From NCBI GenBank assembly GCA_045536135.1, contig JAZSNA010000025.1:1-60728 (forward strand): a DNA stretch of 60,728 bases, in the 5' to 3' direction. The DNA is from Alphaproteobacteria bacterium (GTDB lineage: Bacteria; Pseudomonadota; Alphaproteobacteria; CAAHEQ01; UBA3637). The notes under the pieces are model-generated. The model made no database searches. It was not told the DNA's origin and saw only the letters and a program-made list of their open reading frames with translations. The translations under genes and the position numbers were made by a program. Positions 1-55,783 of this stretch are shown piece after piece; position 1 is the first letter of the stretch, and the number at the start of each line of letters is the position of its first letter.

Positions 1-948
1 AATTCATGTGAAGATGCCAATGCAGTCTATATCACATTCCCATACCCACCCGTGGAAGGGGGTGTGGTGGCTGAACCAGCATCTTGTGATTCTGATGAAT
101 ATTTTAGCAATGGCTCATGTCATTCTTGCCCGTCGAGTGCGACTTGTGACGGAACAGCCAATGTGAATTGTGGTACCGGTAAGTATTTTGATGATGGGCG
201 GTGTTATTCTTGTCCATCGGATGCGACTTGTGATGGAACGGCGAATGTGATTTGTTCGGATACTAGTAAGTATTTTGATGCTTTTTGGCAGAGCTGTAGA
301 TCTTGTCCGGCTGATGCCACTTGCGATGGAACGGCTAATCCACAATGTTCAGATGGTAAAGTTGGGAATTATTATGCTGGCAGTTGGGTATGTTGTTCCA
401 CCAATGAGTATTTTGATGGTTGGAGCTGTTATTCTTGCCCGTTGGGTACAATTTGTGATGGAACGGAAAACCGTTCTTGTTCCGAAGGAAATGAATTGAT
501 TTATTATGACTGGGATTCCACGGATGTCTGTTGCCCAATCGGAACAACCGAAGTCGGGTTCGATCAATGGGACAGTTATGAATGCTGTGATCCGGAAACA
601 GAAACTCTTGTCGGTGGAATATGGGGAAGTATGCAATGTTGCACAAAAGGATATGATGACGGGTGTTGTCCTGAAAAAGGATTTTATGCTTTTTATTTGG
701 ATGATTATGTTTGTTGTTCCAATTCGGATACAGGGGTCGACGAAGAGGGTAATTGTATTTCATGTCCTAATGGAACCGGTAATATAGGTAATGGCTATTA
801 TCAACGTTGTTGCACCAATGATGAAAGCTTGATTAAGGTAAACTCTTGGATGAATGTATGTTGTCCAAAAGGGGCAACTTCTGCCGAGGATGATAGGACT
901 GCTGCTTCCGGATACCGCTGTTATGATGCTGATGGTGAAGAATTGTGA
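1..948 (+). CDS. Cys-rich repeat surface protein, 5' end outside window (paralog of 48349..49242 and 54415..55608)
   Basis: The frame is open from nt 1 (NSCEDANAVYITFPYPP...). Nt 1-50 are identical to 48730-48779. Four CxxCP-x-(D/S)ATCDG units are followed by a CC-dipeptide-rich module; stop TGA at 946-948. Confidence 0.75.
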   Translation, partial: NSCEDANAVYITFPYPPVEGGVVAEPASCDSDEYFSNGSCHSCPSSATCDGTANVNCGTGKYFDDGRCYSCPSDATCDGTANVICSDTSKYFDAFWQSCRSCPADATCDGTANPQCSDGKVGNYYAGSWVCCSTNEYFDGWSCYSCPLGTICDGTENRSCSEGNELIYYDWDSTDVCCPIGTTEVGFDQWDSYECCDPETETLVGGIWGSMQCCTKGYDDGCCPEKGFYAFYLDDYVCCSNSDTGVDEEGNCISCPNGTGNIGNGYYQRCCTNDESLIKVNSWMNVCCPKGATSAEDDRTAASGYRCYDADGEEL

Positions 949-15557: not shown

Positions 15558-15836
15558 TTAAGCTCCTTCAATTGGTGTTAATAAAGATTTTACCGCCTTA
15601 ATCTGAGTTCCTTTGGCGATTTCAACCATAACTTCATCGTTATCCGATAAAGATGTAATTTTTCCATAAATCCCGTTAATTAAAACCATATCCCCGACTT
15701 TCAACGCATCAATTCGACGTTGATGTTCTGCTATACGTTTCTTTTGCGGACGAATAAGCAAAAAATAAAAAATTAAAAAAATCAACGCTAACTGGATTGC
15801 AGCATAAAGCCCCGAATTCATTGTTGTTTCTGTCAT
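15558..15836 (-). CDS. yajC: preprotein translocase subunit YajC
   Basis: Single TM followed by the RPQKKR motif; operon position upstream of secDF. Confidence 0.9.
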   Translation of the reverse strand: MTETTMNSGLYAAIQLALIFLIFYFLLIRPQKKRIAEHQRRIDALKVGDMVLINGIYGKITSLSDNDEVMVEIAKGTQIKAVKSLLTPIEGA

Positions 15837-15895
15837 AAATTTTTCCTTTCAAATACTGCCATACAATATAGCAAAATTCCTTAAAAATGCAAGGA

Positions 15896-16231
15896 TTATT
15901 TTCGAACAATCCGTTCAAAGGCGAATCGTTTTTTAAATTTTTCAATCACCGATGAAATCAATTTCATTTCCTCATTCTGTGTCAGCGGGCAAAAGCTTGA
16001 CCGAATAATCTGGCACGGACGGTCAATATATAAAATATTTTCAGATGTATCTTTTCGAACAAGATATTGATCGGCATTCACATAAACAATCAATGGCGAG
16101 GCTGTATCCGATATCCGATACCAAGTCGCAACCGCAACCTGATTAACACTAACCACCTCGAACCGCATTTCTTTTAACGGATTTTTAGTCATACATGCCA
16201 TCAATAAAATAAATAAAAATATTTTTTTCAT
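15896..16231 (-). CDS. truncated, degenerate paralog of lipoprotein hydrolase 1029..1748
   Basis: Lipobox LLMAC. PLIVYVNAD and YIDRPCQII align with PLYVYIEGD and YLGRPCQYI of the long copy. It ends before the GYSGG motif. Confidence 0.45.
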   Translation of the reverse strand: MKKIFLFILLMACMTKNPLKEMRFEVVSVNQVAVATWYRISDTASPLIVYVNADQYLVRKDTSENILYIDRPCQIIRSSFCPLTQNEEMKLISSVIEKFKKRFAFERIVRK

Positions 16232-33866: not shown

Positions 33867-34357
33867 CTAAAGAATATACTTTTAATCCAGGTGATTTCGT
33901 TGTTTATCCGACACATGGTGTCGGTCGTGTAAAGGATATTGTTTGTGATACAATCGGCGGACAAAATTTAAGCTTTTTAGAAGTTAATTTCGAAAAAGAT
34001 CAAATGACAATGAAGATACCGACAACAAATAAACGGTTGCGTTCGATTTCTTCTCGTTCCGTTATGGATGAAGCATTATCAACTTTATCCGGAAAAGCAA
34101 AAGTTAAAAAAATCATGTGGTCAAAACGGGCCAGCGAATATGAAGAAAAAATCAATTCCGGTGATCCGTGTCAAGTTGCACAAGTCGTTCGGGATTTATT
34201 TAAACCAACCGAAAAAAGCGAACAATCTTATAGCGAACGATTGATTTTTGAACAGGCGTTTGAACGACTATCTCATGAATATGCAACATTGGAAAACATC
34301 AGCATTGATGAATCCAATTCCAGATTAAACAAGATTTTGGAAACCGGAAAGTTTTAA
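33863..34357 (+). CDS. carD: CarD/CdnL-family transcription regulator
   Basis: FNPGDFVVYPTHGVGRVKDI Tudor-like RNAP-interaction domain. Confidence 0.9.
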   Translation: MTKEYTFNPGDFVVYPTHGVGRVKDIVCDTIGGQNLSFLEVNFEKDQMTMKIPTTNKRLRSISSRSVMDEALSTLSGKAKVKKIMWSKRASEYEEKINSGDPCQVAQVVRDLFKPTEKSEQSYSERLIFEQAFERLSHEYATLENISIDESNSRLNKILETGKF

Positions 34358-35298
34358 AATAAGTCTTTAATTTTTTGAGCAATTTCACTCGAACAATTTA
34401 ATTTCCCGCCAAATATCATTTGAGCAGATCCAAGTGGCGTTGCAAATCCTTTTTCATACAACATTTGATGTAATCTTTGATGTTTAGAAGACATATTTCC
34501 TTTGGGTGCAAAAATCATTACCGGAACACCCGTTGCACAACATTCCGAACACATAGACATTGAATCGCCCGTCACGACAATCTTATCCGCCCATGATAAA
34601 AGCCCCATATACGGATTATCCCCTTTATCACCGAATTGATATAAAAATGTACTTTTTGCATTAAATGTTTTTTTGATCACATCAATCACTTCCAATGGTG
34701 TTCTGCGTGAAGTCGTTATCAAAACGCTACTTGGTTTCAATTTTAAGACATTTTGACATAAGTCTTCGGCCATTTCTTTTGTAAAATCAAAAGCCTTTGT
34801 TTTTCCGCCGACAATCATTGAAAGCCGAGGCCTTGGGTATTTTTCAAAAACACCTTTCCATTTTTCTTTTTCTATTTTTAATTTTTGATCCGTAATTCGA
34901 TGTGGAGAACCAATAACCCGTAATATGTTTTTTCCACGCACATCCCCATCATGTTCCGGTATCACAACCAAATCCGCATATTTTCGCCCAATCACCCCCG
35001 GATTCATCAACCATATCACTTTCGTTTTCGGAGATTTGTTTTTTATCCACAGCGCCAACATATAACTCCGACGACCTGCCCCGATTAAAATGTCCGGATA
35101 ATTAGATGAAAAATCATGTTTATTTTGTATTCCCCATAACTTATTCAGTTTTAAAGAATTATGAAGCTTTATCCATTTGGTATAAAATACTTTTTTAATT
35201 TCAAACGGCCACTTCAAGGCCTCCGCCACACCCAAAATTTGATTTTCATTCCCTTTTCGATCATCAATCAATAACCAAACTTTTTTACTTTTTGTCAT
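34354..35298 (-). CDS. ELM1/DUF1022-family protein (putative glycosyltransferase-like)
   Basis: WLLIDDRKGNENQILGVAEAL and VTGDSMSMCSECCATGVPV motifs. Start chosen at 35298, overlapping the upstream stop; 35316 or 35313 are also possible. Confidence 0.65.
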   Translation of the reverse strand: MTKSKKVWLLIDDRKGNENQILGVAEALKWPFEIKKVFYTKWIKLHNSLKLNKLWGIQNKHDFSSNYPDILIGAGRRSYMLALWIKNKSPKTKVIWLMNPGVIGRKYADLVVIPEHDGDVRGKNILRVIGSPHRITDQKLKIEKEKWKGVFEKYPRPRLSMIVGGKTKAFDFTKEMAEDLCQNVLKLKPSSVLITTSRRTPLEVIDVIKKTFNAKSTFLYQFGDKGDNPYMGLLSWADKIVVTGDSMSMCSECCATGVPVMIFAPKGNMSSKHQRLHQMLYEKGFATPLGSAQMIFGGKLNCSSEIAQKIKDLF

Positions 35299-35761
35299 AC
35301 GATACAACCTCATCATGAATATAGACGATTTCAACTCCGGCTTGGAGAAACATTTCTTCGGTTTCAGATGTTTGTTTATATTTATATTCTGCAATCACTT
35401 TTTTAATTCCGCAAGCAATTAACAACATTGCACAAGTCCGACATGGCGACATTTTACAATATAAGGTTGCTCCATCGATTGATATCCCCCGTTTAGCCGC
35501 TTGACAAATCGCATTTTGTTCCGCATGAAGGGTTCGCATACAATGTTGAGACGAATGACCATTTTCATCTGTCACCGTTTTAATTAAATGTCCGACATCA
35601 TCACAATGTGGCAATCCGGACGGCGCCCCCACATATCCGGAAGTTAAAATCTGGTTATCTTTGACAATAACACAGGCGGTTTTTCCTCGATCACATGTGG
35701 CTCGATTGGCTAATGCATGCATTACTTCAATAAAATATTCATCCCAAGACGGTCTGGTCAT
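35285..35761 (-). CDS. dCMP deaminase (ComEB family)
   Basis: HAEQNAI and PCRTCAMLL zinc-binding motifs. Confidence 0.85.
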   Translation of the reverse strand: MTRPSWDEYFIEVMHALANRATCDRGKTACVIVKDNQILTSGYVGAPSGLPHCDDVGHLIKTVTDENGHSSQHCMRTLHAEQNAICQAAKRGISIDGATLYCKMSPCRTCAMLLIACGIKKVIAEYKYKQTSETEEMFLQAGVEIVYIHDEVVSYDKK

Positions 35762-39956: not shown

Positions 39957-40388
39957 TTATATTTTCGGACAATATGTGTCACTTTCTATTTTAGTTAATG
40001 TTTCATGAAAAATTATTTCAACAGTGTTGGTATTTTCATCTGTTTTAATACACATATATTTATCCGCACTTTTTTCCATTTCTCCTTTAAACGCCTCTAC
40101 ATCATCAGCATTATTTAATTCAACCGTAATTGAAAAAGTAATCTCATCATTTTTCAGATAAGTACATTTTGTTTGATCAAGTATCTCGTCTTTTTCTGCC
40201 CCTTCACTCATCCGACGATTTTGGGGAGCATATTTTGTTGCCAAAACCAAAACCTTGTTTTTTAAAATGGACATTCGATGTCTTTTAATCACAAATTGCA
40301 TTGTCGTTAATGTAATGGCAGAAATAACTGCAATAACCGCCAATACACCAATTAATTCCACCAACGAACGTCCTTTTTCTTTTTTCAT
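39957..40388 (-). CDS. short prepilin-like protein (no Cys-repeat array)
   Basis: MKKEKGRSLVELIGVLAVIAVISAI has the same G-RSxVE plus hydrophobic-helix N-terminus as the long Cys-rich paralogs. Confidence 0.6.
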   Translation of the reverse strand: MKKEKGRSLVELIGVLAVIAVISAITLTTMQFVIKRHRMSILKNKVLVLATKYAPQNRRMSEGAEKDEILDQTKCTYLKNDEITFSITVELNNADDVEAFKGEMEKSADKYMCIKTDENTNTVEIIFHETLTKIESDTYCPKI

Positions 40389-42290: not shown

Positions 42291-43399
42291 TGCAAAGGTC
42301 TTCGTCCTTTCGGCCATAAAATATAATAAGAACCACTACTTTTCATCCGACCGGCTTTTTCAAATGCCTCATCTCCATAACCCCAAAAATAATCCCCCCG
42401 AATCGGACCTTTTATCGCACTCCCCTTATCCTGAGCGACCACTAATTTTCGTATTTTAGGTTCAGATGTTGTCAAATAAATCGGCGTTGACAAGGGAATA
42501 TAATTCGTATCAACCGCCAAAGAACGTTCTGCCGTTAACGGAACACCGGCAGCACCGATTGGTCCACCCATATCCTCTTTTAAATCAAAGAAGATATATC
42601 GTGGATTTTGTGCCATCAATTCTTTTGCTTTTTTCGGATTCTTTTTCAACCATTTTTTGATTTCCGGCATAGATGCCTTTCCCTTTTTCAATAATCCCTC
42701 ATCTGACATAATTTTCCCGATTCCGACAAAGGGATGACCGTTATTACCGGCATAACCAATCCGATAGACTCCATCCGGTGTTATCACACGACCTGAGCCT
42801 TGAATATGTAAAATAAAGGCATCAATATCACAATCCGCCCATAATAATACCGGTGCATTACATCCGTTCTTCATAATATTCTTTCGGTCAAAGTAAGAAA
42901 CGAAACGTCCGTTTTCCGCCCGACCATAAAAAACATCATCACTTTTATCCCGACAAACATCTGATGAATAAACCTTGATTAAATCATTCGGAATACCGTA
43001 TATCGGCGTTTGATTCGAATGAGTTTGCTTTAATGTTCCAGTTAATTCCGTTTCATAATACCCTGTAAATGTCCCGCTGGTTTTTCCATAAGAAGTGACC
43101 AAATAAGGCGTTAATGTTTTTTCAATATATTTACGTATTTCTTTGGCAGTTTTCTGTTTTTTAAAACCGTCACAAAAACCTTTCCAAATTTCATTGGGAG
43201 CTTGACAAGAGCGAGCCAATGCCTCACCGGCTTTATTAAAATCATCTTTTTTCCAATCCGGCAAGCTTGAAAATTCCATTTCGACAAAATCAAACGGTCG
43301 ATTCGTTCGAGCAATTTTAGTTGACGAACATCCTTCCAACCACATTATTAATAATAAGGTCAGTAAAACCATTATCGGCATTAAAAACATTGCCTTCAT
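42287..43399 (-). CDS. mltA: murein transglycosylase A
   Basis: MltA-specific insert and a 3D domain (LAVDTNYIPLSTPIYL...GSAIKG). Confidence 0.85.
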   Translation of the reverse strand: MKAMFLMPIMVLLTLLLIMWLEGCSSTKIARTNRPFDFVEMEFSSLPDWKKDDFNKAGEALARSCQAPNEIWKGFCDGFKKQKTAKEIRKYIEKTLTPYLVTSYGKTSGTFTGYYETELTGTLKQTHSNQTPIYGIPNDLIKVYSSDVCRDKSDDVFYGRAENGRFVSYFDRKNIMKNGCNAPVLLWADCDIDAFILHIQGSGRVITPDGVYRIGYAGNNGHPFVGIGKIMSDEGLLKKGKASMPEIKKWLKKNPKKAKELMAQNPRYIFFDLKEDMGGPIGAAGVPLTAERSLAVDTNYIPLSTPIYLTTSEPKIRKLVVAQDKGSAIKGPIRGDYFWGYGDEAFEKAGRMKSSGSYYILWPKGRRPLQ

Positions 43400-43965
43400 G
43401 CAACCTCACTTTTGGTCGATAATAATACCCAGTTATTTTTACCTTTTTTTTCAAAAACCCATAAATCCTTTATTGTGGATAAATTAATGCTGTCCCCTTC
43501 AATGACTTGACCGGCTTTATTCTTTAATGCATTAATTTGTTCGGTTATAAATTCAACTTCAATTTTTTCCGGTTCTAAATTCGTAATCGGCGATATAATT
43601 CGACATTCTTGAAATGAAATTAACGAAAATTCCAGCTGATTTTCATCCTTCTTTCTTTTTTCGACTTCTTCCGAAAGTTTTTTAAAAATTTTTTCGGATA
43701 AAATATTTTTAACTTTAGTTAAATCCCCCAAAGCAAACTGTTGTGTAATTTGATGAAATGCCATTTTAGCACCAATCAAAAAATTATCCGAATCGAATTC
43801 CTTCTTTTTTTGAGCTTTTGCCTTTGTTTCTTCCAATACCATTTTTAACAAACGTTCTTTATCCAATTGCCCATCTACGGGAACTTCTTGTTTTCCCAAT
43901 GTTGAAAAGAGCTTAGCACAAATCACAAAAACAATTATTGCTAAAAATATCCATTCTGCTTGCAT
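43396..43965 (-). CDS. Tim44-like domain protein
   Basis: N-terminal TM, then a Tim44-like C-domain. The internal ATG at 43965 has an AAGGA RBS; divergent from secB, as is typical in alphaproteobacteria. Confidence 0.75.
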   Translation of the reverse strand: MQAEWIFLAIIVFVICAKLFSTLGKQEVPVDGQLDKERLLKMVLEETKAKAQKKKEFDSDNFLIGAKMAFHQITQQFALGDLTKVKNILSEKIFKKLSEEVEKRKKDENQLEFSLISFQECRIISPITNLEPEKIEVEFITEQINALKNKAGQVIEGDSINLSTIKDLWVFEKKGKNNWVLLSTKSEVA

Positions 43966-44033
43966 TTTTATTCCTTTGCTATATAGTATGTAATATAGCT
44001 TTTTTATTAACAAAAAACAACAGGAAAATGAAC

Positions 44034-44456
44034 ATGACAGAAAAACAACAACCTTCAATTCAAATATTACGTCAATATATCAAGGATTTATCTTATGAAG
44101 CGCCGAATCAACCGATTGTCTTAAAAGAGCAACCCAAGATTGATATTAAAATCGATATTGCCACCGCAAAAGCCGATAACAATAATTATATCGTTGATTT
44201 GGTCACCAAAATTACAGCCTCACAGGAAAATAAACAAATTTTTATTTGTGAGTTAACCTATGGGGCTATTGCTCATTTAGAAGTCGAAGAAAAAATGGTT
44301 GAGCCAATTTTATTGGTCGAAATTCCACATTTATTATTCCCATATTCAAGATCTTTGATTTCAACAATCATATCAGAATCGGGATTACCACCCATTAATT
44401 TACAACCGATTAATTTCGCAGCTTTATATCAACAAAAAAAGGCGACTCAACAATGA
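44034..44456 (+). CDS. secB: protein-export chaperone SecB
   Basis: IQILRQYIKDLSYEAPN start typical of SecB; size 140 aa from the ATG at 44034. Confidence 0.85.
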   Translation: MTEKQQPSIQILRQYIKDLSYEAPNQPIVLKEQPKIDIKIDIATAKADNNNYIVDLVTKITASQENKQIFICELTYGAIAHLEVEEKMVEPILLVEIPHLLFPYSRSLISTIISESGLPPINLQPINFAALYQQKKATQQ

Positions 44457-48103: not shown

Positions 48104-48173
48104 TAATGGATTAATTCTTTTTATCCCCAACCACAAGCGTTTTAAGTCATTGAAAAGTAATGTATTTTTACAT

Positions 48174-48300
48174 CAAAAAAACCTTGGTTTTTTGCAAGAA
48201 CTTTTTTTCATGATTTAAATATTTTTTTTCTTTTATTTTAAAAGCGTTGTTTTTTCATTTTTTGCCTTTTCGAATATCAAAAAAAACCAAGGTTTTTTTT
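48174..48300. promoter_or_regulatory. candidate invertible promoter element (locus 1): 85-bp core between perfect 20-bp hix-like inverted repeats
   Basis: 48174-48193 AAAAAAAACCTTGGTTTTTT versus 48281-48300 AAAAAACCAAGGTTTTTTTT. A homologous element at 55656-55783 has the opposite orientation relative to its gene. Confidence 0.6.
48192..48220 (+). promoter_or_regulatory. sigma70-like promoter TTGCAA-N17-TTAAAT inside the invertible element, pointing at 48349
   Basis: The -35 abuts the left repeat; the same TTGCAA -35 is used by the predicted tRNA-Ala promoter. The -10 lies in a palindromic ATTTAAAT, so directionality is not certain. Confidence 0.4.
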
Positions 48301-48348
48301 ATACTGTTTTTATTGAGGAAAAAAATAACAAAAAAAAGGAGAATAAAA

Positions 48349-49242
48349 ATGAAAAAACAAAGCGGTCGGAGTATGGTTGAAATGCTGGGAACACTGGCAA
48401 TTATCGGTGTTTTGTCAGTGACGGCATTGACGGGATATAAAATCGCCATGACCAAGAATCGGACAAACAATATTTTATATGATGTGAATTTAGCGATGAA
48501 TGAAATCGCCACTCGGGAATATGGGACCTTGGCGGATGTTGAAGCTGATGTATCCACTTTGGGTGTTAAAACGGAATTTGACATCAGCTATGCCCGATTA
48601 GGGAATACAGAATCAGAAGGTTTTTATATCGTTGTGGATGGTATTACACCGGAAGTTTGTGAAACCTTGCGTTCCAATAAAACCGCTTTTATGGCGAAGA
48701 TCCAACCATATAATGGTGAAGATCCCGCCAATTCATGTGAAGATGCCAATGCAGTCTATATCACATTCCCATACCCACCAATCGAGGGGGGAGAGGTTGC
48801 AGAACCTGCACCTTGTGATTCTGATGAATATTTTAATGGTAGCTGTCTTCCTTGTCCGCCAAATGCAACTTGTGATGGAACAGCCAATGTGATTTGTTCT
48901 GATACCAGTAAGTATTTAAATGCTGCAAGGGGGAGCTGTGAATCTTGCCCATCGGGTGCGACTTGTGACGGAACAAATGTGATTTGTTCGGATACCAGTA
49001 AGTATTTAAATCCTGCATGGGGGAGCTGTCGTTCTTGCCCATCGGATGCGACTTGTAATGGATACACTGGAATTTGTTCGGATACCAGTAAGTATTTCAA
49101 TGCTTTATGGGAGGAGAGTTGTCAACCTTGTCCGGATTATGCCATTTGCGATGGAACAAAAGATGCATCCTGTGATAAAGGATGGTGGAGTGAAGTTGAC
49201 GGGTGTTGCTTTGATGATGATGTTGGTTGTCTATATCTATAA
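48349..49242 (+). CDS. prepilin-like N-domain protein with furin/VSP-like Cys-repeat C-terminal array
   Basis: AAGGAG RBS; MKKQSGRSMVEMLGTLAIIGVLSV (G, E at +5, hydrophobic helix). About 5 CxxCP-x-(D/G/N)ATC(D/N)G units, then the tail CDKGWWSEVDGCCFDDD. Confidence 0.8.
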   Translation: MKKQSGRSMVEMLGTLAIIGVLSVTALTGYKIAMTKNRTNNILYDVNLAMNEIATREYGTLADVEADVSTLGVKTEFDISYARLGNTESEGFYIVVDGITPEVCETLRSNKTAFMAKIQPYNGEDPANSCEDANAVYITFPYPPIEGGEVAEPAPCDSDEYFNGSCLPCPPNATCDGTANVICSDTSKYLNAARGSCESCPSGATCDGTNVICSDTSKYLNPAWGSCRSCPSDATCNGYTGICSDTSKYFNALWEESCQPCPDYAICDGTKDASCDKGWWSEVDGCCFDDDVGCLYL

Positions 49243-49306
49243 CTATTCCGACCTATCAATAAAAAAACGGGGGTGATTCACCCCCGTTTTTATTTCAGTT
49301 AGATTA
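49237..49306. repeat. 70-nt perfect inverted repeat partner of 54351..54420 (3' end plus terminator of the Cys-rich genes)
   Basis: Read directly: CTATAACTATTCCGACCTATCAATAAAAAAACGGGGGTGATTCACCCCCGTTTTTATTTCAGTTAGATTA on + here and on - at 54351-54420. Confidence 0.9.
49262..49291 (+). terminator. rho-independent terminator
   Basis: ACGGGGG-loop-CCCCCGT hairpin followed by a T-run. Confidence 0.7.
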
Positions 49307-49453
49307 TTTTATTTTTTCCCTTCATCAAAGGCTTTAGACGAATATTTCTGTTGTCATGAAACAGGGGAATATTTTGTAAGTGATAATGGATGTTTGCCTT
49401 GTCCGTCGGGGGCGACTTGTAATGGAATAAATTGTACCGGAAGCGGGTGTTAA
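49277..49453 (+). pseudogene. start-less single Cys-repeat module (orphan cassette or gene remnant)
   Basis: The open frame encodes ...DEYFCCHETGEYFVSDNGCLPCPSGATCNGINCTGSGC* with no in-frame ATG/GTG/TTG and no RBS. Confidence 0.5.
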
Positions 49454-53792: not shown

Positions 53793-54353
53793 ATGAAAAA
53801 AAGTATTTCAAAAGATTTAATCATGGCACCGATGCCGGTTTTAATTATCGGCACCTATGACGAAAAAGGTATCCCGAATGCAATGAATGCGGCTTGGGGC
53901 GGACAAAGCGACTTTGATGAAGTGACCGTTTATTTGGGACAGCACAAAACGACTGAAAACTTAAAAACCAAAAAGGCCTTTACGATTGCATTTGCAACCA
54001 AGGAAACTTTGATTGTATCGGATTACTTTGGCATTGAAAGCGGGCATCAGGTAAATAAAATTGAAAAAGCCGGATATCATGTCAGTAAAAGCCCCAATAT
54101 AGATGCACCGATTATAGAAGAATATCCGCTTGTATTGGAATGTGAAGTATCTGAATTGACCGAATATGCCGGCGATTGGCGGTTGAGTGGTAAAGTTGTT
54201 AATGTCTTGGCTGATGAAAATATAGTTGACAAAGATGGCAAGGTTGATTTATCCAGATTGAATTTAATTTGTTTCGACGCGTCTCATCACACCTATCGAG
54301 TTGTCGGCGAAGTTGTCGGAAAAGCCTTTGATGAAGGGAAAAAAATAAAATAA
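53793..54353 (+). CDS. flavin reductase-like (FMN-binding split-barrel) protein
   Basis: APMPVLIIGTYDEKGIPNAMNAAWGG pattern. Confidence 0.75.
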   Translation: MKKSISKDLIMAPMPVLIIGTYDEKGIPNAMNAAWGGQSDFDEVTVYLGQHKTTENLKTKKAFTIAFATKETLIVSDYFGIESGHQVNKIEKAGYHVSKSPNIDAPIIEEYPLVLECEVSELTEYAGDWRLSGKVVNVLADENIVDKDGKVDLSRLNLICFDASHHTYRVVGEVVGKAFDEGKKIK

Positions 54354-54365
54354 TCTAACTGAAAT

Positions 54366-54396
54366 AAAAACGGGGGTGAATCACCCCCGTTTTTTT
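54366..54396. terminator. bidirectional terminator (inverted copy of 49262..49291)
   Basis: The same GGGGG/CCCCC hairpin, between convergent genes. Confidence 0.7.
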
Positions 54397-54414
54397 ATTG
54401 ATAGGTCGGAATAG

Positions 54415-55608
54415 TTATAGACAACTCCCAACATCATCATCAAAGCAACACTCAGAAAGCTCATCCCACCATCCTTCATCACAAATCACAATGTCTGTTC
54501 CATCGCAAGTGGCATCAGCCGGACAAGGTTGACAGTTCCTCCATGAAACATTTAAATATTTACTGGTATCCGAACAAATCACAGTGATTCCATTGCAAGT
54601 GGCATCCGATGGGCAAGGATAGCATTCGTCGTCAAAATACGAAAAATATTCTGTTTTATCACAGCAAGAAGAATTCCCTTTACCCCCTTGATTTAGGATA
54701 TATCCATCATCACAAATCACATTCGCCGTTCCATCACAAGTCGCATCCGATGGACAAGAATCACAACTCGAACCACTAAAAAACTGATCGGTGCTTCCAC
54801 AATCGGTTATTTTCGTTCCATCACAAGTCGCGCCCGATGGACAAGAACGACAGCTCCCACCATAAAAATACTTACTGGTATCAGAACAATTCACATTCGC
54901 CGTTCCATCACAAGTCGCATCCGATGGACAAGGATAACAACTCGAACCACTAGAATACTGATCGGTGCTTCCACAATCGGTTATTTTCGTTCCATCACAA
55001 GTCGCATCCGATGGACAAGAAAAACATGAGGCAGATCCAAAATATTTATTAGAACCACAATTCACATTCGCTCCATCACAAGTCGCATCCGATGGACAAG
55101 GATAACATCTAGCATATTTAAAATATTCATCAGAATCACAAGGTACTGGTTTTTCGATCTTTCCCCCCTCGATTGGTGGGTATGGGAATGTGATATAGAC
55201 TGCATTGGCATCTTCACATGAATTGGCGGGATTATCACCATTATATGGTTGGATCTCCGCCATAAAAGCGGTTTTATTGGAACGCAAGGTTTCACAAACT
55301 TCCGGTGTAATACCATCCACAGCAATATAAAATCCGTTTTTTTCTTCCCCTCCCAGTCGAGCATAACCGATATCAAATTCCGATTTAACCCCCAAATCGG
55401 ATACAGGAGCTTCTTCATCAACCGGTAAAGACATATATTCCCGAGTGGCGATTTCATTCATCGCTAAATTCACATCGTATAAAATATTATTTGTCCGATT
55501 CTTGGTCATGGCGATTTTATATCCCGTTAATGCCGTCACCGACAAAACACCGATAATCGCCAGTGTTCCCAGCATTTCAACCATACTGCGTCCAAATTCT
55601 TTTTTCAT
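54415..55608 (-). CDS. prepilin-like N-domain protein with furin/VSP-like Cys-repeat C-terminal array (longest paralog)
   Basis: MKKEFGRSMVEMLGTLAIIGVLSV. The N-domain DNA is about 95 percent identical (by eye) to 48349..; about 7 CxxCP-x-DATCDG units; tail CDEGWWDELSECCFDDD. Confidence 0.8.
   Translation of the reverse strand: MKKEFGRSMVEMLGTLAIIGVLSVTALTGYKIAMTKNRTNNILYDVNLAMNEIATREYMSLPVDEEAPVSDLGVKSEFDIGYARLGGEEKNGFYIAVDGITPEVCETLRSNKTAFMAEIQPYNGDNPANSCEDANAVYITFPYPPIEGGKIEKPVPCDSDEYFKYARCYPCPSDATCDGANVNCGSNKYFGSASCFSCPSDATCDGTKITDCGSTDQYSSGSSCYPCPSDATCDGTANVNCSDTSKYFYGGSCRSCPSGATCDGTKITDCGSTDQFFSGSSCDSCPSDATCDGTANVICDDGYILNQGGKGNSSCCDKTEYFSYFDDECYPCPSDATCNGITVICSDTSKYLNVSWRNCQPCPADATCDGTDIVICDEGWWDELSECCFDDDVGSCL
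54717..55064. repeat. 174-nt (58-codon) tandem duplication inside the Cys-repeat array
   Basis: 54717-54845 versus 54891-55019 differ at about 6 positions by my count. Confidence 0.75.
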
Positions 55609-55655: not shown

Positions 55656-55783
55656 AAAAAAAACCTTGGTTTTTTGCAAGCATTTTTTTTACAATTTAAA
55701 TATTTTTTTTCTTTTTTTTTCAAAAAACTTATTTTTTCATTTTTCGCCTTTTTGAATATCAAAAAAAACCAAGGTTTTTTTTT
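55656..55783. promoter_or_regulatory. candidate invertible promoter element (locus 2), flipped relative to its gene compared with locus 1
   Basis: 55656-55675 AAAAAAAACCTTGGTTTTTT and 55761-55783 AAAAAAAACCAAGGTTTTTTTTT. The 85-bp core is colinear with locus 1 on the + strand although the gene is on the - strand. TTGCAA-N16-TTAAAT (55674-55701) points away from the gene. Confidence 0.6.

Follow-up and report, generated by a model that had tools for sequence, protein, structure and literature searches.

A candidate modular type IV pilin gene with a cysteine-repeat stalk and a putative invertible promoter in a gut alphaproteobacterium

A gene at positions 48349..49242 (+ strand) of contig JAZSNA010000025.1 (assembly GCA_045536135.1), within a 60,728-nucleotide (nt) stretch of alphaproteobacterial DNA that was analysed as a whole and is called the window below, encodes a 297-residue protein, P0001, that resembles a modular type IV pilin. 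The assignment draws on the open reading frame (ORF) and its translation, on 287 homologues, and on an AlphaFold2 model with a mean predicted local distance difference test (pLDDT) score of 86.5. The ORF is intact, and its ATG start is preceded by a Shine-Dalgarno sequence, AAGGAG, 8 nt upstream. An earlier note on this DNA had described a three-part architecture, a prepilin-like N-terminal domain joined by a PYPPIEGG linker to a series of cysteine-rich units, and the translation bears this out.

The protein begins with a six-residue leader peptide, MKKQSG (48349..48366, + strand), for which prepilin-peptidase cleavage is predicted after Gly6; across the homologues both G6 and E11, the residue at +5, are invariant. 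The mature N-terminus (MKKQSG/RSMVEMLGTLAIIGVLSVTALTGY, with the slash at the predicted cut) thus has its glutamate at +5, and a hydrophobic stretch follows. The pilin module, residues 7-140 (48367..48768, +), is modelled by AlphaFold2 as an alpha1 helix (residues 8-55) and four beta-strands and matched by Foldseek to type IV pilins, and it contains a pair of cysteines, Cys104 within EVCETL and Cys130 within NSCED. Next come the linker PYPPIEGG, residues 141-148 (48769..48792, +), where pLDDT falls below 50 at residues 146-149, and four units of ~30 aa with the pattern C-x2-C-P-x3-[TI]-C-[DN]-G-x4-5-C-x-DTSKY (48844..49170, +), which were delimited by motif count, by Tandem Repeats Finder (TRF) and by a strand pattern modelled at pLDDT ~88. 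The coding sequence closes with a C-terminal cap, CDKGWWSEVDGCCFDDDVGCLYL (49171..49239, +; also read as CDKGWWSEVDGCCFDDD), and an intrinsic terminator with a 13-bp stem lies at 49263..49291 (+). An alternative TTG start at 48247, which would give a 331-aa ORF, was rejected because it would run through the inverted repeat described below; it is also disfavoured since a Shine-Dalgarno sequence precedes the ATG at 48349, which agrees with the start of a paralog.

That paralog, P0002 (54415..55608, - strand), has 397 aa and seven units and carries the same cap, of which a variant form occurs in the homologue P0004; its terminator is identical to that of the target gene. A third paralog (1..948, +), cut by the window edge inside its pilin module, has four units, a CC-rich module and a different C-terminus. 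Both were identified by translation and motif count. With units counted by the strict motif C..CP...[TI]C[DN]G, the earlier estimate of about seven units in 54415..55608 comes out at seven, the four units plus CC module in 1..948 stand, and the target has four rather than about five. Nor do all copies end in CD.GWW....CCFDDD, as had been stated: two of the three in the window do so, and the copy at 1..948 ends in RCYDADGEEL. Over their first 150 residues the two full-length copies are 87% identical in amino-acid sequence, and the PYPPIEGG linker is kept in the window paralogs as well as in P0003 and P0004. In DNA, the promoter-proximal regions of the target and P0002 are near-identical, as are their terminators together with ~80 nt downstream (49243-49340 and 54317-54414). 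Whole cassettes, from switch to terminator, have therefore been homogenised, with a different repeat array between the shared flanks.

The element termed a switch here lies immediately upstream of the target gene. Its left inverted repeat, ATCAAAAAAACCTTGGTTTTTT (48172..48193), is a dyad site with a central TT and has the AAACC-NN-GGTTT architecture of gix from phage Mu; its right inverted repeat, AAAAAACCAAGGTTTTTTTTAT (48281..48302), assigned by pairing of the two arms, has a central AA. Between them is an 87-bp segment (48194..48280) that, from comparison with the segment of the paralog, is predicted to be in the OFF orientation, with the hexamer TTGCAA at its distal end (48192-48197). Outside the switch, and identical in the paralog, are a fixed -10 element, TATACT (48300-48305), and the Shine-Dalgarno sequence AAGGAG (48336-48341), which together span 48300..48341 (+). 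The upstream region conserved in both full-length copies reads AAAAAACCAAGGTTTTTTTTATACTGTTTTTATTG and then continues to the Shine-Dalgarno sequence and the ATG. In this design only the -35 hexamer would move: the right inverted repeat doubles as the promoter spacer, and the -10 element stays in place beyond it.

The switch of P0002 (55651..55782, -) has inverted repeats at 55656-55675 and 55763-55782 that are 20 nt long, 100% complementary and 87 nt apart, and it is predicted to be ON. A consensus promoter scan finds TTGCAA-17-TATACT there, running from 55679 to 55651 and facing the gene, and finds no promoter-like site facing the target gene. At both loci the arms, of 20-22 nt, are intact (20/20 in P0002 and 21/22 in the target) and the spacing of 87 nt is the same, and the interiors are identical at 75/87 positions when one is reverse-complemented, as against 36/87 in the same orientation. 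The motif AAAACCWWGGTTTT has four exact matches in the window, all at the two switches, and five when one mismatch is allowed, where 0.38 would be expected; the fifth, AAAACCTTGTTTTT at 40249-40262, falls inside a 143-aa pilin-like ORF considered further below. For the assembly as it stands, these sequence comparisons predict an OFF state at the target and an ON state at P0002.

The two crossover-type sites, AAAAACC-TT-GGTTTTT and AAAAACC-AA-GGTTTTT, are dyads around an asymmetric dinucleotide. Mu gix, read as CCAAAACC-TC-GGTTTAC at the annotated G-segment boundaries of AF083977, shares with them the core AAACC-NN-GGTTT. In the homologue P0004, an annotated N-terminal extension translates the ON-state sequence TTGCTTGCAAAAAACCAAGG. 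The Salmonella hixL site presumably resembles the sites seen here more closely still. As a separate matter, a stretch inside the segment, GCGTTGTTTTTTCATTTTT (48244-48262), is 95% complementary to the region of the gene start, AAAAATGAAAAAACAAAGC (48345-48363), and, read in the other orientation, contains a mini-ORF, MKKQRF followed by a stop codon, that duplicates the first codons of the target. This mini-ORF may be a relic of the origin of the switch, or an extra antisense or occlusion element.

Outside this contig, the same design recurs with other sequences. The right inverted repeat plus -10 element (AAACCAAGGTTTTTTTTATACTG) had 0 exact matches in JGI metagenome contigs. Nor does the inverted-repeat motif of the window occur in front of 88 family genes from other metagenome-assembled genomes (MAGs), which use different site sequences. 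In the MAG CALXVS01, the repeats are of the form AAAAAGG-TT/AA-CCTTT and lie ~117-131 nt apart. One of its loci, L035, has TTGCAA-18-TACACT and reads ON; at L063, L072 (-), L073 and L074 the interior is reverse-complemented (OFF), as seen in minus-strand matches of 162-165 nt at 91-96% identity, and the proximal site of L061, where the upstream region is cut short, likewise reads OFF. In another MAG, JAZKXP01, a 215-nt reversed match links L053 and L065, again with different palindromic sites.

A candidate enzyme is found in both of these genomes. L073 of CALXVS01 carries, at 91-690, a gene for a master DNA invertase of the Mpi family (NF009949, 276.1 bits against an equivalog cut-off of 272); homologues of it lie in JAZKXP01 (L033 651-1235, -; 57% identity) and at a second CALXVS01 locus (L074 ~15600-16135, -). 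In the two MAGs, then, Mpi-family invertase genes occur on contigs that also carry family genes preceded by such invertons. The match at L074 is split into two BLAST segments, and this copy may be a pseudogene. Genes for XerC-like tyrosine recombinases (326 aa) were also seen in two MAGs (L066 8621-9601 and L020 1273-2253), each immediately 5' of a family gene. As candidate invertases they were set aside: they score ~300 bits against an equivalog cut-off of 335, were left ambiguous, and are probably housekeeping genes. Their adjacency to family genes may reflect conserved xerC synteny or mark a second recombinase candidate.

Several observations weigh against promoter inversion as a live process. 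The opposite states are seen across paralogs, with one orientation per locus in the consensus assembly; a segment of 87 bp is very short for the synapse of a serine invertase; and no invertase gene lies within the window. The two interiors have diverged at 12/87 positions. The OFF state, moreover, still contains a weak TTGCAA-17-TTAAAT that could give some transcription, the hexamer TTGCAA being self-complementary. One could regard the opposite orientations as fossils of rearrangements that accompanied gene duplication, with expression constitutive or regulated by other means. We consider such an account quite unlikely. The inverted repeats have remained intact although the interior between them has diverged, three genomes, whose site sequences differ, each show both states among their paralogs, and in two species the TTGCAA brought beside the inverted repeat makes a near-consensus promoter. 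The sites themselves have the form used by serine invertases, a dyad with an asymmetric dinucleotide, and Mpi-family invertases are encoded in both of the other genomes.

With regard to the protein, conservation was read from an alignment of 120 homologues, in which G6, R7, S8, M9, E11, L13, G14 and C104 do not vary and at least 90% of the sequences retain C130. Glycine at -1 and glutamate at +5 are hallmarks of prepilin-peptidase substrates, and the features of a class-III signal are present here: a short basic leader, Gly(-1), Glu at +5, and a hydrophobic alpha1N. The full-length AlphaFold2 model, built from the same 120-row alignment, has a 48-residue helix (8-55) followed by a four-stranded sheet (strands 78-83, 92-97, 117-121 and 135-140) with short helices; after the low-confidence stretch of linker at 146-149, the chain is modelled as a regular stack of beta-hairpins.

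When the N-terminal part of the full model is compared with the PDB by Foldseek, it matches the toxin-coregulated pilin TcpA (8uhf, prob 0.97-0.98) and CofA (9iuf_A, prob 0.97). A model of residues 1-150 by themselves has type IV pilins, the Clostridioides difficile protein PilW included, as its top five PDB matches; for TcpA the prob is 0.94 with a query TM-score (TMq) of 0.51, and for CofA 0.90 with a TMq of 0.58 and a root-mean-square deviation of 3.7 Å over 147 columns. The suggestion of a pilin-like N-domain that came with the three-part description is thus upheld by its class-III signal, by the modelled helix and sheet and by the identity of its top structural matches, and the comparison with type IV pilin folds that had been proposed as a check returns TcpA, CofA and PilW at prob 0.90-0.98.

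Here, too, there are points on the other side. The Foldseek E-values for pilins are weak (0.03-0.4), and the model of residues 1-150 has a pLDDT of 73.7. Sequence profiles stay below threshold: the Pfam N_methyl hidden Markov model (HMM) PF07963, also put forward earlier as a check, does match P0001, at 16.8 bits, under its cut-off of 21.2; TIGR02532 gives 12.4 bits for P0001 and 11.9 for P0002 against a cut-off of 16.3; no family member reaches E<=0.001 with models of the N-terminal methylation motif; and the family profile has no significant pilin match among PDB sequences. The arginine at +1, invariant in the 120 homologues, is atypical for pilins, and the leader of six residues (family median, 9) is short for a type IVb protein. 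Of the usual type IVb pattern, namely a leader of ~15-30 aa, Met, Leu or Val at +1, and a mature protein of ~180-200 aa, none is seen, the pilin module having ~140 aa. Because the Foldseek E-values are weak, membership of the N-domain in the pilin fold is, at the level of these models, supported but not proven.

If the module is a pilin, one may ask where its assembly apparatus lies. The window holds no pilus machinery and no prepilin peptidase. It is a stretch of ordinary alphaproteobacterial chromosome (GroEL, LpxK, KdtA, a Tim44-like and an ELM1-like protein, ATP synthase, FtsK, SecD), and the pilin-like genes are interspersed among these housekeeping genes, most of them standing singly, in the window as in relatives. 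In the related MAG JAZKXP01, a different species, on the other hand, a type IVb pilus operon (L065 1642-9682) lies directly upstream of a family gene and encodes TcpQ, a PilN-type secretin (TIGR02520, 274.8 bits), PAP_PilO, a PilP-like protein, a T2SSE ATPase and a T2SSF platform protein. The presence of a type IVb operon beside a family gene agrees with the structural matches to TcpA and CofA. A 23-nt inverted-repeat pair was also noted at L065, between the platform gene and the family pilin gene.

The scattering of the genes away from machinery is what one might expect if the pilin-type signal served for export and anchoring only, the processed proteins forming surface stubs (of a bindosome or pseudopilus-like kind) or being released, with the Cys modules as receptors or coat. 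Dozens of copies per genome would be unusual for minor pilins, the curated pilin HMMs are below threshold, and some repeat-bearing relatives carry bulky modules of up to ~1,850 aa. Nevertheless, we judge this explanation unlikely. What is conserved is the globular module too and not the signal alone, with Cys104 invariant and Cys130 near-invariant; this module is modelled as a head domain like those of TcpA and CofA; one member sits directly 3' of a complete type IVb assembly operon; and bulky modular pilins do assemble into the pili of Streptococcus sanguinis (PMC8179133).

The cysteine repeat of the target consists of four units spaced 30-31 aa apart, with four Cys each, that AlphaFold2 models as a beta-hairpin stack. 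Its coding DNA is tandemly repeated, as TRF reports a period of 90 in 2.7 copies at 48863-49104 (85% match); in P0002 it gives a period of 174 in 2.3 copies at 54712-55107, with an overlapping period-87 reading at 73% match, and in the third paralog a period of 84 in 1.9 copies at 118-280. The periods (84, 87/174 and 90) are all multiples of 3, and matches are 82-87% save for the period-87 reading. The proposal that the Cys-rich module varies in copy number is thus substantiated by the four versus seven units of the paralogs and by the in-frame tandem DNA repeats.

The affinities of the repeat are harder to pin on any named family. The units had been likened to furin, Giardia variant-specific surface protein (VSP) and Paramecium surface-antigen arrays. 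In a Pfam scan run at E<=10, however, neither P0001 nor its paralogs gave a Furin-like, VSP or Paramecium surface-antigen match, so that membership in these families is not borne out; no tumour necrosis factor receptor (TNFR) profile reached significance for them either. The list for P0001 in that scan comprises MSC, DUF7631, N_methyl and Ephrin_rec_like (E=4.5) only. The match to MSC (PF09402), at 29.8 bits nominally above its cut-off, was rejected as spurious: of the 337 model positions only ~43-77 are aligned, the aligned stretch is Cys repeat, and unrelated repeat proteins give the match as well. DUF7631 (PF24634) stays under its gathering cut-off of 27 with P0001 (23.9 bits), P0002 (19.2) and the 1..948 fragment (14.2), and P0001 aligns to positions 2-17 of its 50 only, at CxxCPxGATCDG; the cut-off is passed by the relatives P0003 (29.8 bits), P0121 (32.2) and P0130 (32.8).

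Searched by itself, the repeat region retrieved 7 proteins in a word-indexed search and 91 carriers among 1.84 billion representative proteins in an exhaustive phmmer search, at least 7 of these 91 with a pilin-type N-terminus. Three giant pilin-fused carriers, P0125, P0126 and P0129, have 905, 1852 and 1846 aa and 17-26 CxxCP units. Many other carriers are bacterial proteins with ordinary Sec signal peptides. Some have a eukaryotic appearance, namely P0124, which comes from the MERC/Tara catalogue, P0123, which lies among RCC1 exons, and P0122, whose contig has 67.5% GC and no bacterial-type genes. With respect to taxonomic spread, then, every named match of the N-module belongs to an alphaproteobacterial MAG, and the unit is found in both bacterial and eukaryote-looking proteins.

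One could imagine from such a distribution that the repeat was recently acquired from a eukaryote, either the host or a gut protist, and mimics a receptor domain of the TNFR, ELAPOR or furin-like type. The three eukaryote-looking proteins are among the closest non-pilin carriers of the unit; a Foldseek search with the repeat part lists ELAPOR1, 4-1BB (a TNFR) and a mastigoneme protein of Chlamydomonas; and other family members have Mucin2_WxxW and teneurin-type epidermal growth factor (EGF) modules. Set against these are the lack of significant furin, VSP, Paramecium-antigen or TNFR profile matches, the low Foldseek prob values of only 0.12-0.21, and the many Sec-secreted bacterial carriers. 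The GC content at third codon positions (GC3) of the repeat DNA is 0.27-0.31, compared with 0.336 ± 0.03 (range 0.29-0.38) for host genes; being at or below the host range, it gives no sign of recent import, and the codon and GC comparison does not support the foreign origin once entertained. Recent acquisition seems to us very unlikely. The label "eukaryote-like" used in the earlier note is a fair one for the style of the motif, as the unit does occur in P0122-P0124; it is no indication of membership in named eukaryotic families or of derivation from a host.

The family to which these genes belong is large. A homologue search over 5.8 billion proteins yielded the 287 homologues, all sharing the N-module of ~145 aa and having very different C-terminal parts; every named one is a "hypothetical protein" of an "Alphaproteobacteria bacterium" MAG. 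A scan of one genome per GTDB species gave 101 matching stretches, from which 79 distinct loci were kept, all in gut MAGs, the hosts being sheep, roe deer and water buffalo, in addition to MAGs labelled SGB. A single MAG, JAZKXP01, holds 28 of the 79. Many loci stand at contig ends, and the present contig itself begins inside the pilin module of a family gene. The size of the family in MAGs is probably underestimated because assemblies break at multicopy sequence. Within the window, a further trace of the family is an orphan repeat-unit fragment (49345..49453, +) that ends in CCHETGEYFVSDNGCLPCPSGATCNGINCTGSGC and a stop codon, ~60 nt past the target terminator, and has no N-domain and no start codon. 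Probably it was left behind when a family gene was rearranged; a role as recombination donor is conceivable.

By BLAST, the C-terminal regions can be grouped into 17 clusters (median Cys content, 8.5%), and the module types among them include Cys-rich stalks, beta-helix-like repeats, a lectin-like WW(S/D)A…C domain, teneurin-type EGF and Mucin2_WxxW. Few are recognisable by Pfam: Mucin2_WxxW (E 1.6e-19), teneurin EGF (E 1e-25) and DUF7107. Animal-type extracellular modules were noted in P0073, P0103, P0107 and P0112. The commonest C-terminal module is the WW(S/D)A…C domain, in a cluster of 55 (e.g. P0067, P0084 and L063); it is weakly like the carbohydrate-recognition domains of C-type lectins such as DC-SIGN (E 0.24-0.8, profile against PDB sequences).

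Taken together, these results make it reasonably probable, in our estimation, that the target gene encodes a modular type IV (IVb-like) pilin with a Cys-repeat stalk, one of a large library of such proteins, and that it is phase-variable by promoter inversion. The class-III signal would be cut after Gly6. Through its pilin module of ~140 aa the protein would then be built into a type IVb pilus, where its most probable place is that of a minor or tip subunit. From there the Pro/Gly linker would hold out the four CxxCP beta-hairpin units as a rigid stalk, stapled by disulfides, that may act as a variable adhesin or antigenic surface. As a member of the library, the protein would have the common N-module and a C-terminal module of its own. 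The 87-bp segment bearing the -35 hexamer TTGCAA would be flipped by an Mpi/Hin-class serine invertase whose gene would lie in another part of the genome. In the ON state TTGCAA would lie 17 bp from the fixed -10 TATACT, and in the OFF state it would be moved ~100 bp away, such that few family members might be ON at any one time. The in-frame tandem DNA repeats would, in addition, let the number of units change by recombination.

A bolder extension of this proposal is that the system effects pilus-based antigenic or adhesin variation according to a logic like that of VSP coats. Dozens of pilin genes would each have their own mini serine-invertase switch, with one or a few ON, and the displayed modules (CxxCP, Mucin-2 WxxW, teneurin-type EGF and C-type-lectin-like) would be shared, and possibly exchanged, with eukaryotes, for attachment to mucus or protists and for immune evasion. 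We offer this only tentatively, as a possibility that is more doubtful than not.

The architecture has clear precedents. Modular type IV pilins have been surveyed at >1,200 proteins with 264 architectures, and the authors of the survey expect that many others escape notice for want of a signature (Raynaud et al., 2021; PMC8179133). Like PilB (with a von Willebrand factor A domain) and PilC (with a lectin domain) of S. sanguinis (PMC8179133), P0001 has a class-III pilin module, a short linker and a grafted module. Unlike them, it has a CxxCP stalk for which there is no dedicated Pfam model, and it belongs to a set of dozens of paralogs per genome with a putative invertible promoter for each copy; its pilin module also falls below the IPR012902/N_methyl-type thresholds, so that a survey of this kind would overlook it. 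TcpA of Vibrio cholerae and CofA of enterotoxigenic Escherichia coli provide the best structural matches of the N-module, and CofB and TcpB consist of pilin modules with extra domains at the pilus tip (PMC8179133). The present module differs from TcpA and CofA in having 14-22% identity, a leader of 6 rather than 15-30 residues, Arg at +1, and a smaller head (~90 aa after alpha1).

A further parallel is with the thin pili of the R64 and TP114 (IncI1/IncI2) plasmids (PMC5430464, PMC9045228), which depend on a type IVb system with PilN, PilO, PilP, an ATPase and a platform protein, as found beside the family gene in JAZKXP01. As in the PilV shufflon of these plasmids, the variable part would be the C-terminal adhesin portion of a minor pilin, and the displayed variant would be changed by site-specific inversion. 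The PilV shufflon, however, swaps C-terminal coding segments in one gene via the tyrosine recombinase Rci, whereas here whole genes would be switched by promoter inversion; and, in contrast to the plasmid system, the sites are like those of serine invertases (Gin/Hin/Mpi) and the genes are chromosomal and dispersed.

The switch itself is reminiscent of those controlled by Bacteroides fragilis Mpi and by Hin and Gin (Hin/hix, PMC2427008), in which short inverted repeats flank a promoter-bearing segment and the sites are dyads with an asymmetric 2-bp core. It departs from them in that the segment has only 87 bp, only the -35 element moves, the inverted repeat is the spacer, and the -10 element is fixed outside; the targets, moreover, are alphaproteobacterial pilin genes, not capsule loci or flagellin. 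As with Mpi, a single serine invertase acting in trans could operate many scattered switches. Mpi was reportedly characterised as a global regulator, by Coyne et al. in 2003. A broad inverton survey makes no mention of pilins (PMC11602134).

The repeat resembles the eukaryotic CxxC repeats (Ephrin_rec_like/GCC2_GCC3, ELAPOR1, furin-like, VSP) in its C-x2-C-P-x-G core, its period of ~30 aa and its disulfide-rich beta-hairpin stack. The first 17 positions of the DUF7631 model match CxxCPxGATCDG, and ELAPOR1 is the top Foldseek match of the whole P0001 model (prob 0.12). The distinction from the eukaryotic CxxC families is that DUF7631 and Ephrin_rec_like stay below threshold and that the exact unit is also present in Sec-secreted bacterial proteins.

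A few other features of the window deserve mention. The 143-aa pilin-like ORF that contains the one-mismatch repeat core (39957-40388, -) begins MKKEKG/RSLVELIGVLAVIAVISAI, with the slash again at the presumed cut, has Cys residues near its C-terminus and adjoins a gene for a major facilitator superfamily transporter. It has no Pfam match. Judged by its sequence, the ORF might supply this system with a conventional pilin. The ELM1 "mitochondrial fission" homologue (PF06258, E 2e-78) and the Tim44-like protein (PF04280) are encoded at 34354-35394 (-) and 43396-44058 (-), respectively. Rfam finds only two tRNAs in the window and none at the target locus.

As to what is new, the class of modular pilins, the variation of type IVb adhesins by inversion (PilV shufflon) and the control of multiple promoters by one invertase (Mpi) are already known. 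What appears to be new, within a limited literature search, is the pilin family itself, the members of which are all "hypothetical" and sub-threshold for pilin HMMs and number dozens of copies per genome, together with the fusion of a CxxCP module to a pilin and a compact per-gene switch in the Alphaproteobacteria. The suggestion that this combination is not a described family therefore holds in part: the family is apparently undescribed, and the architecture class to which it belongs is known (modular pilins, PMC8179133). Surveys of modular pilins count too few members of this family, since these stay below the usual cut-offs of pilin HMMs. As for the CxxCP unit, it is rare, occurs in bacteria and in eukaryote-looking sequences alike, and lacks a proper profile model.

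The compactness of the switch, 87 bp with a recombination site that is at the same time the promoter spacer, may be of interest for the study of recombinase mechanism and for synthetic biology. If the proposed reading is correct, type IV pili would here be diversified by a new route, in which a library of genes, each with its own promoter inversion, takes the place of a shufflon or of gene conversion of the pilS type. The ruminant and human MAGs stand for gut Alphaproteobacteria that are uncultured. A large, phase-variable, pilus-displayed, disulfide-rich repertoire, some modules of which are mucin-, teneurin-EGF- or lectin-like, would, if it exists, be the main interface of these bacteria with the host.

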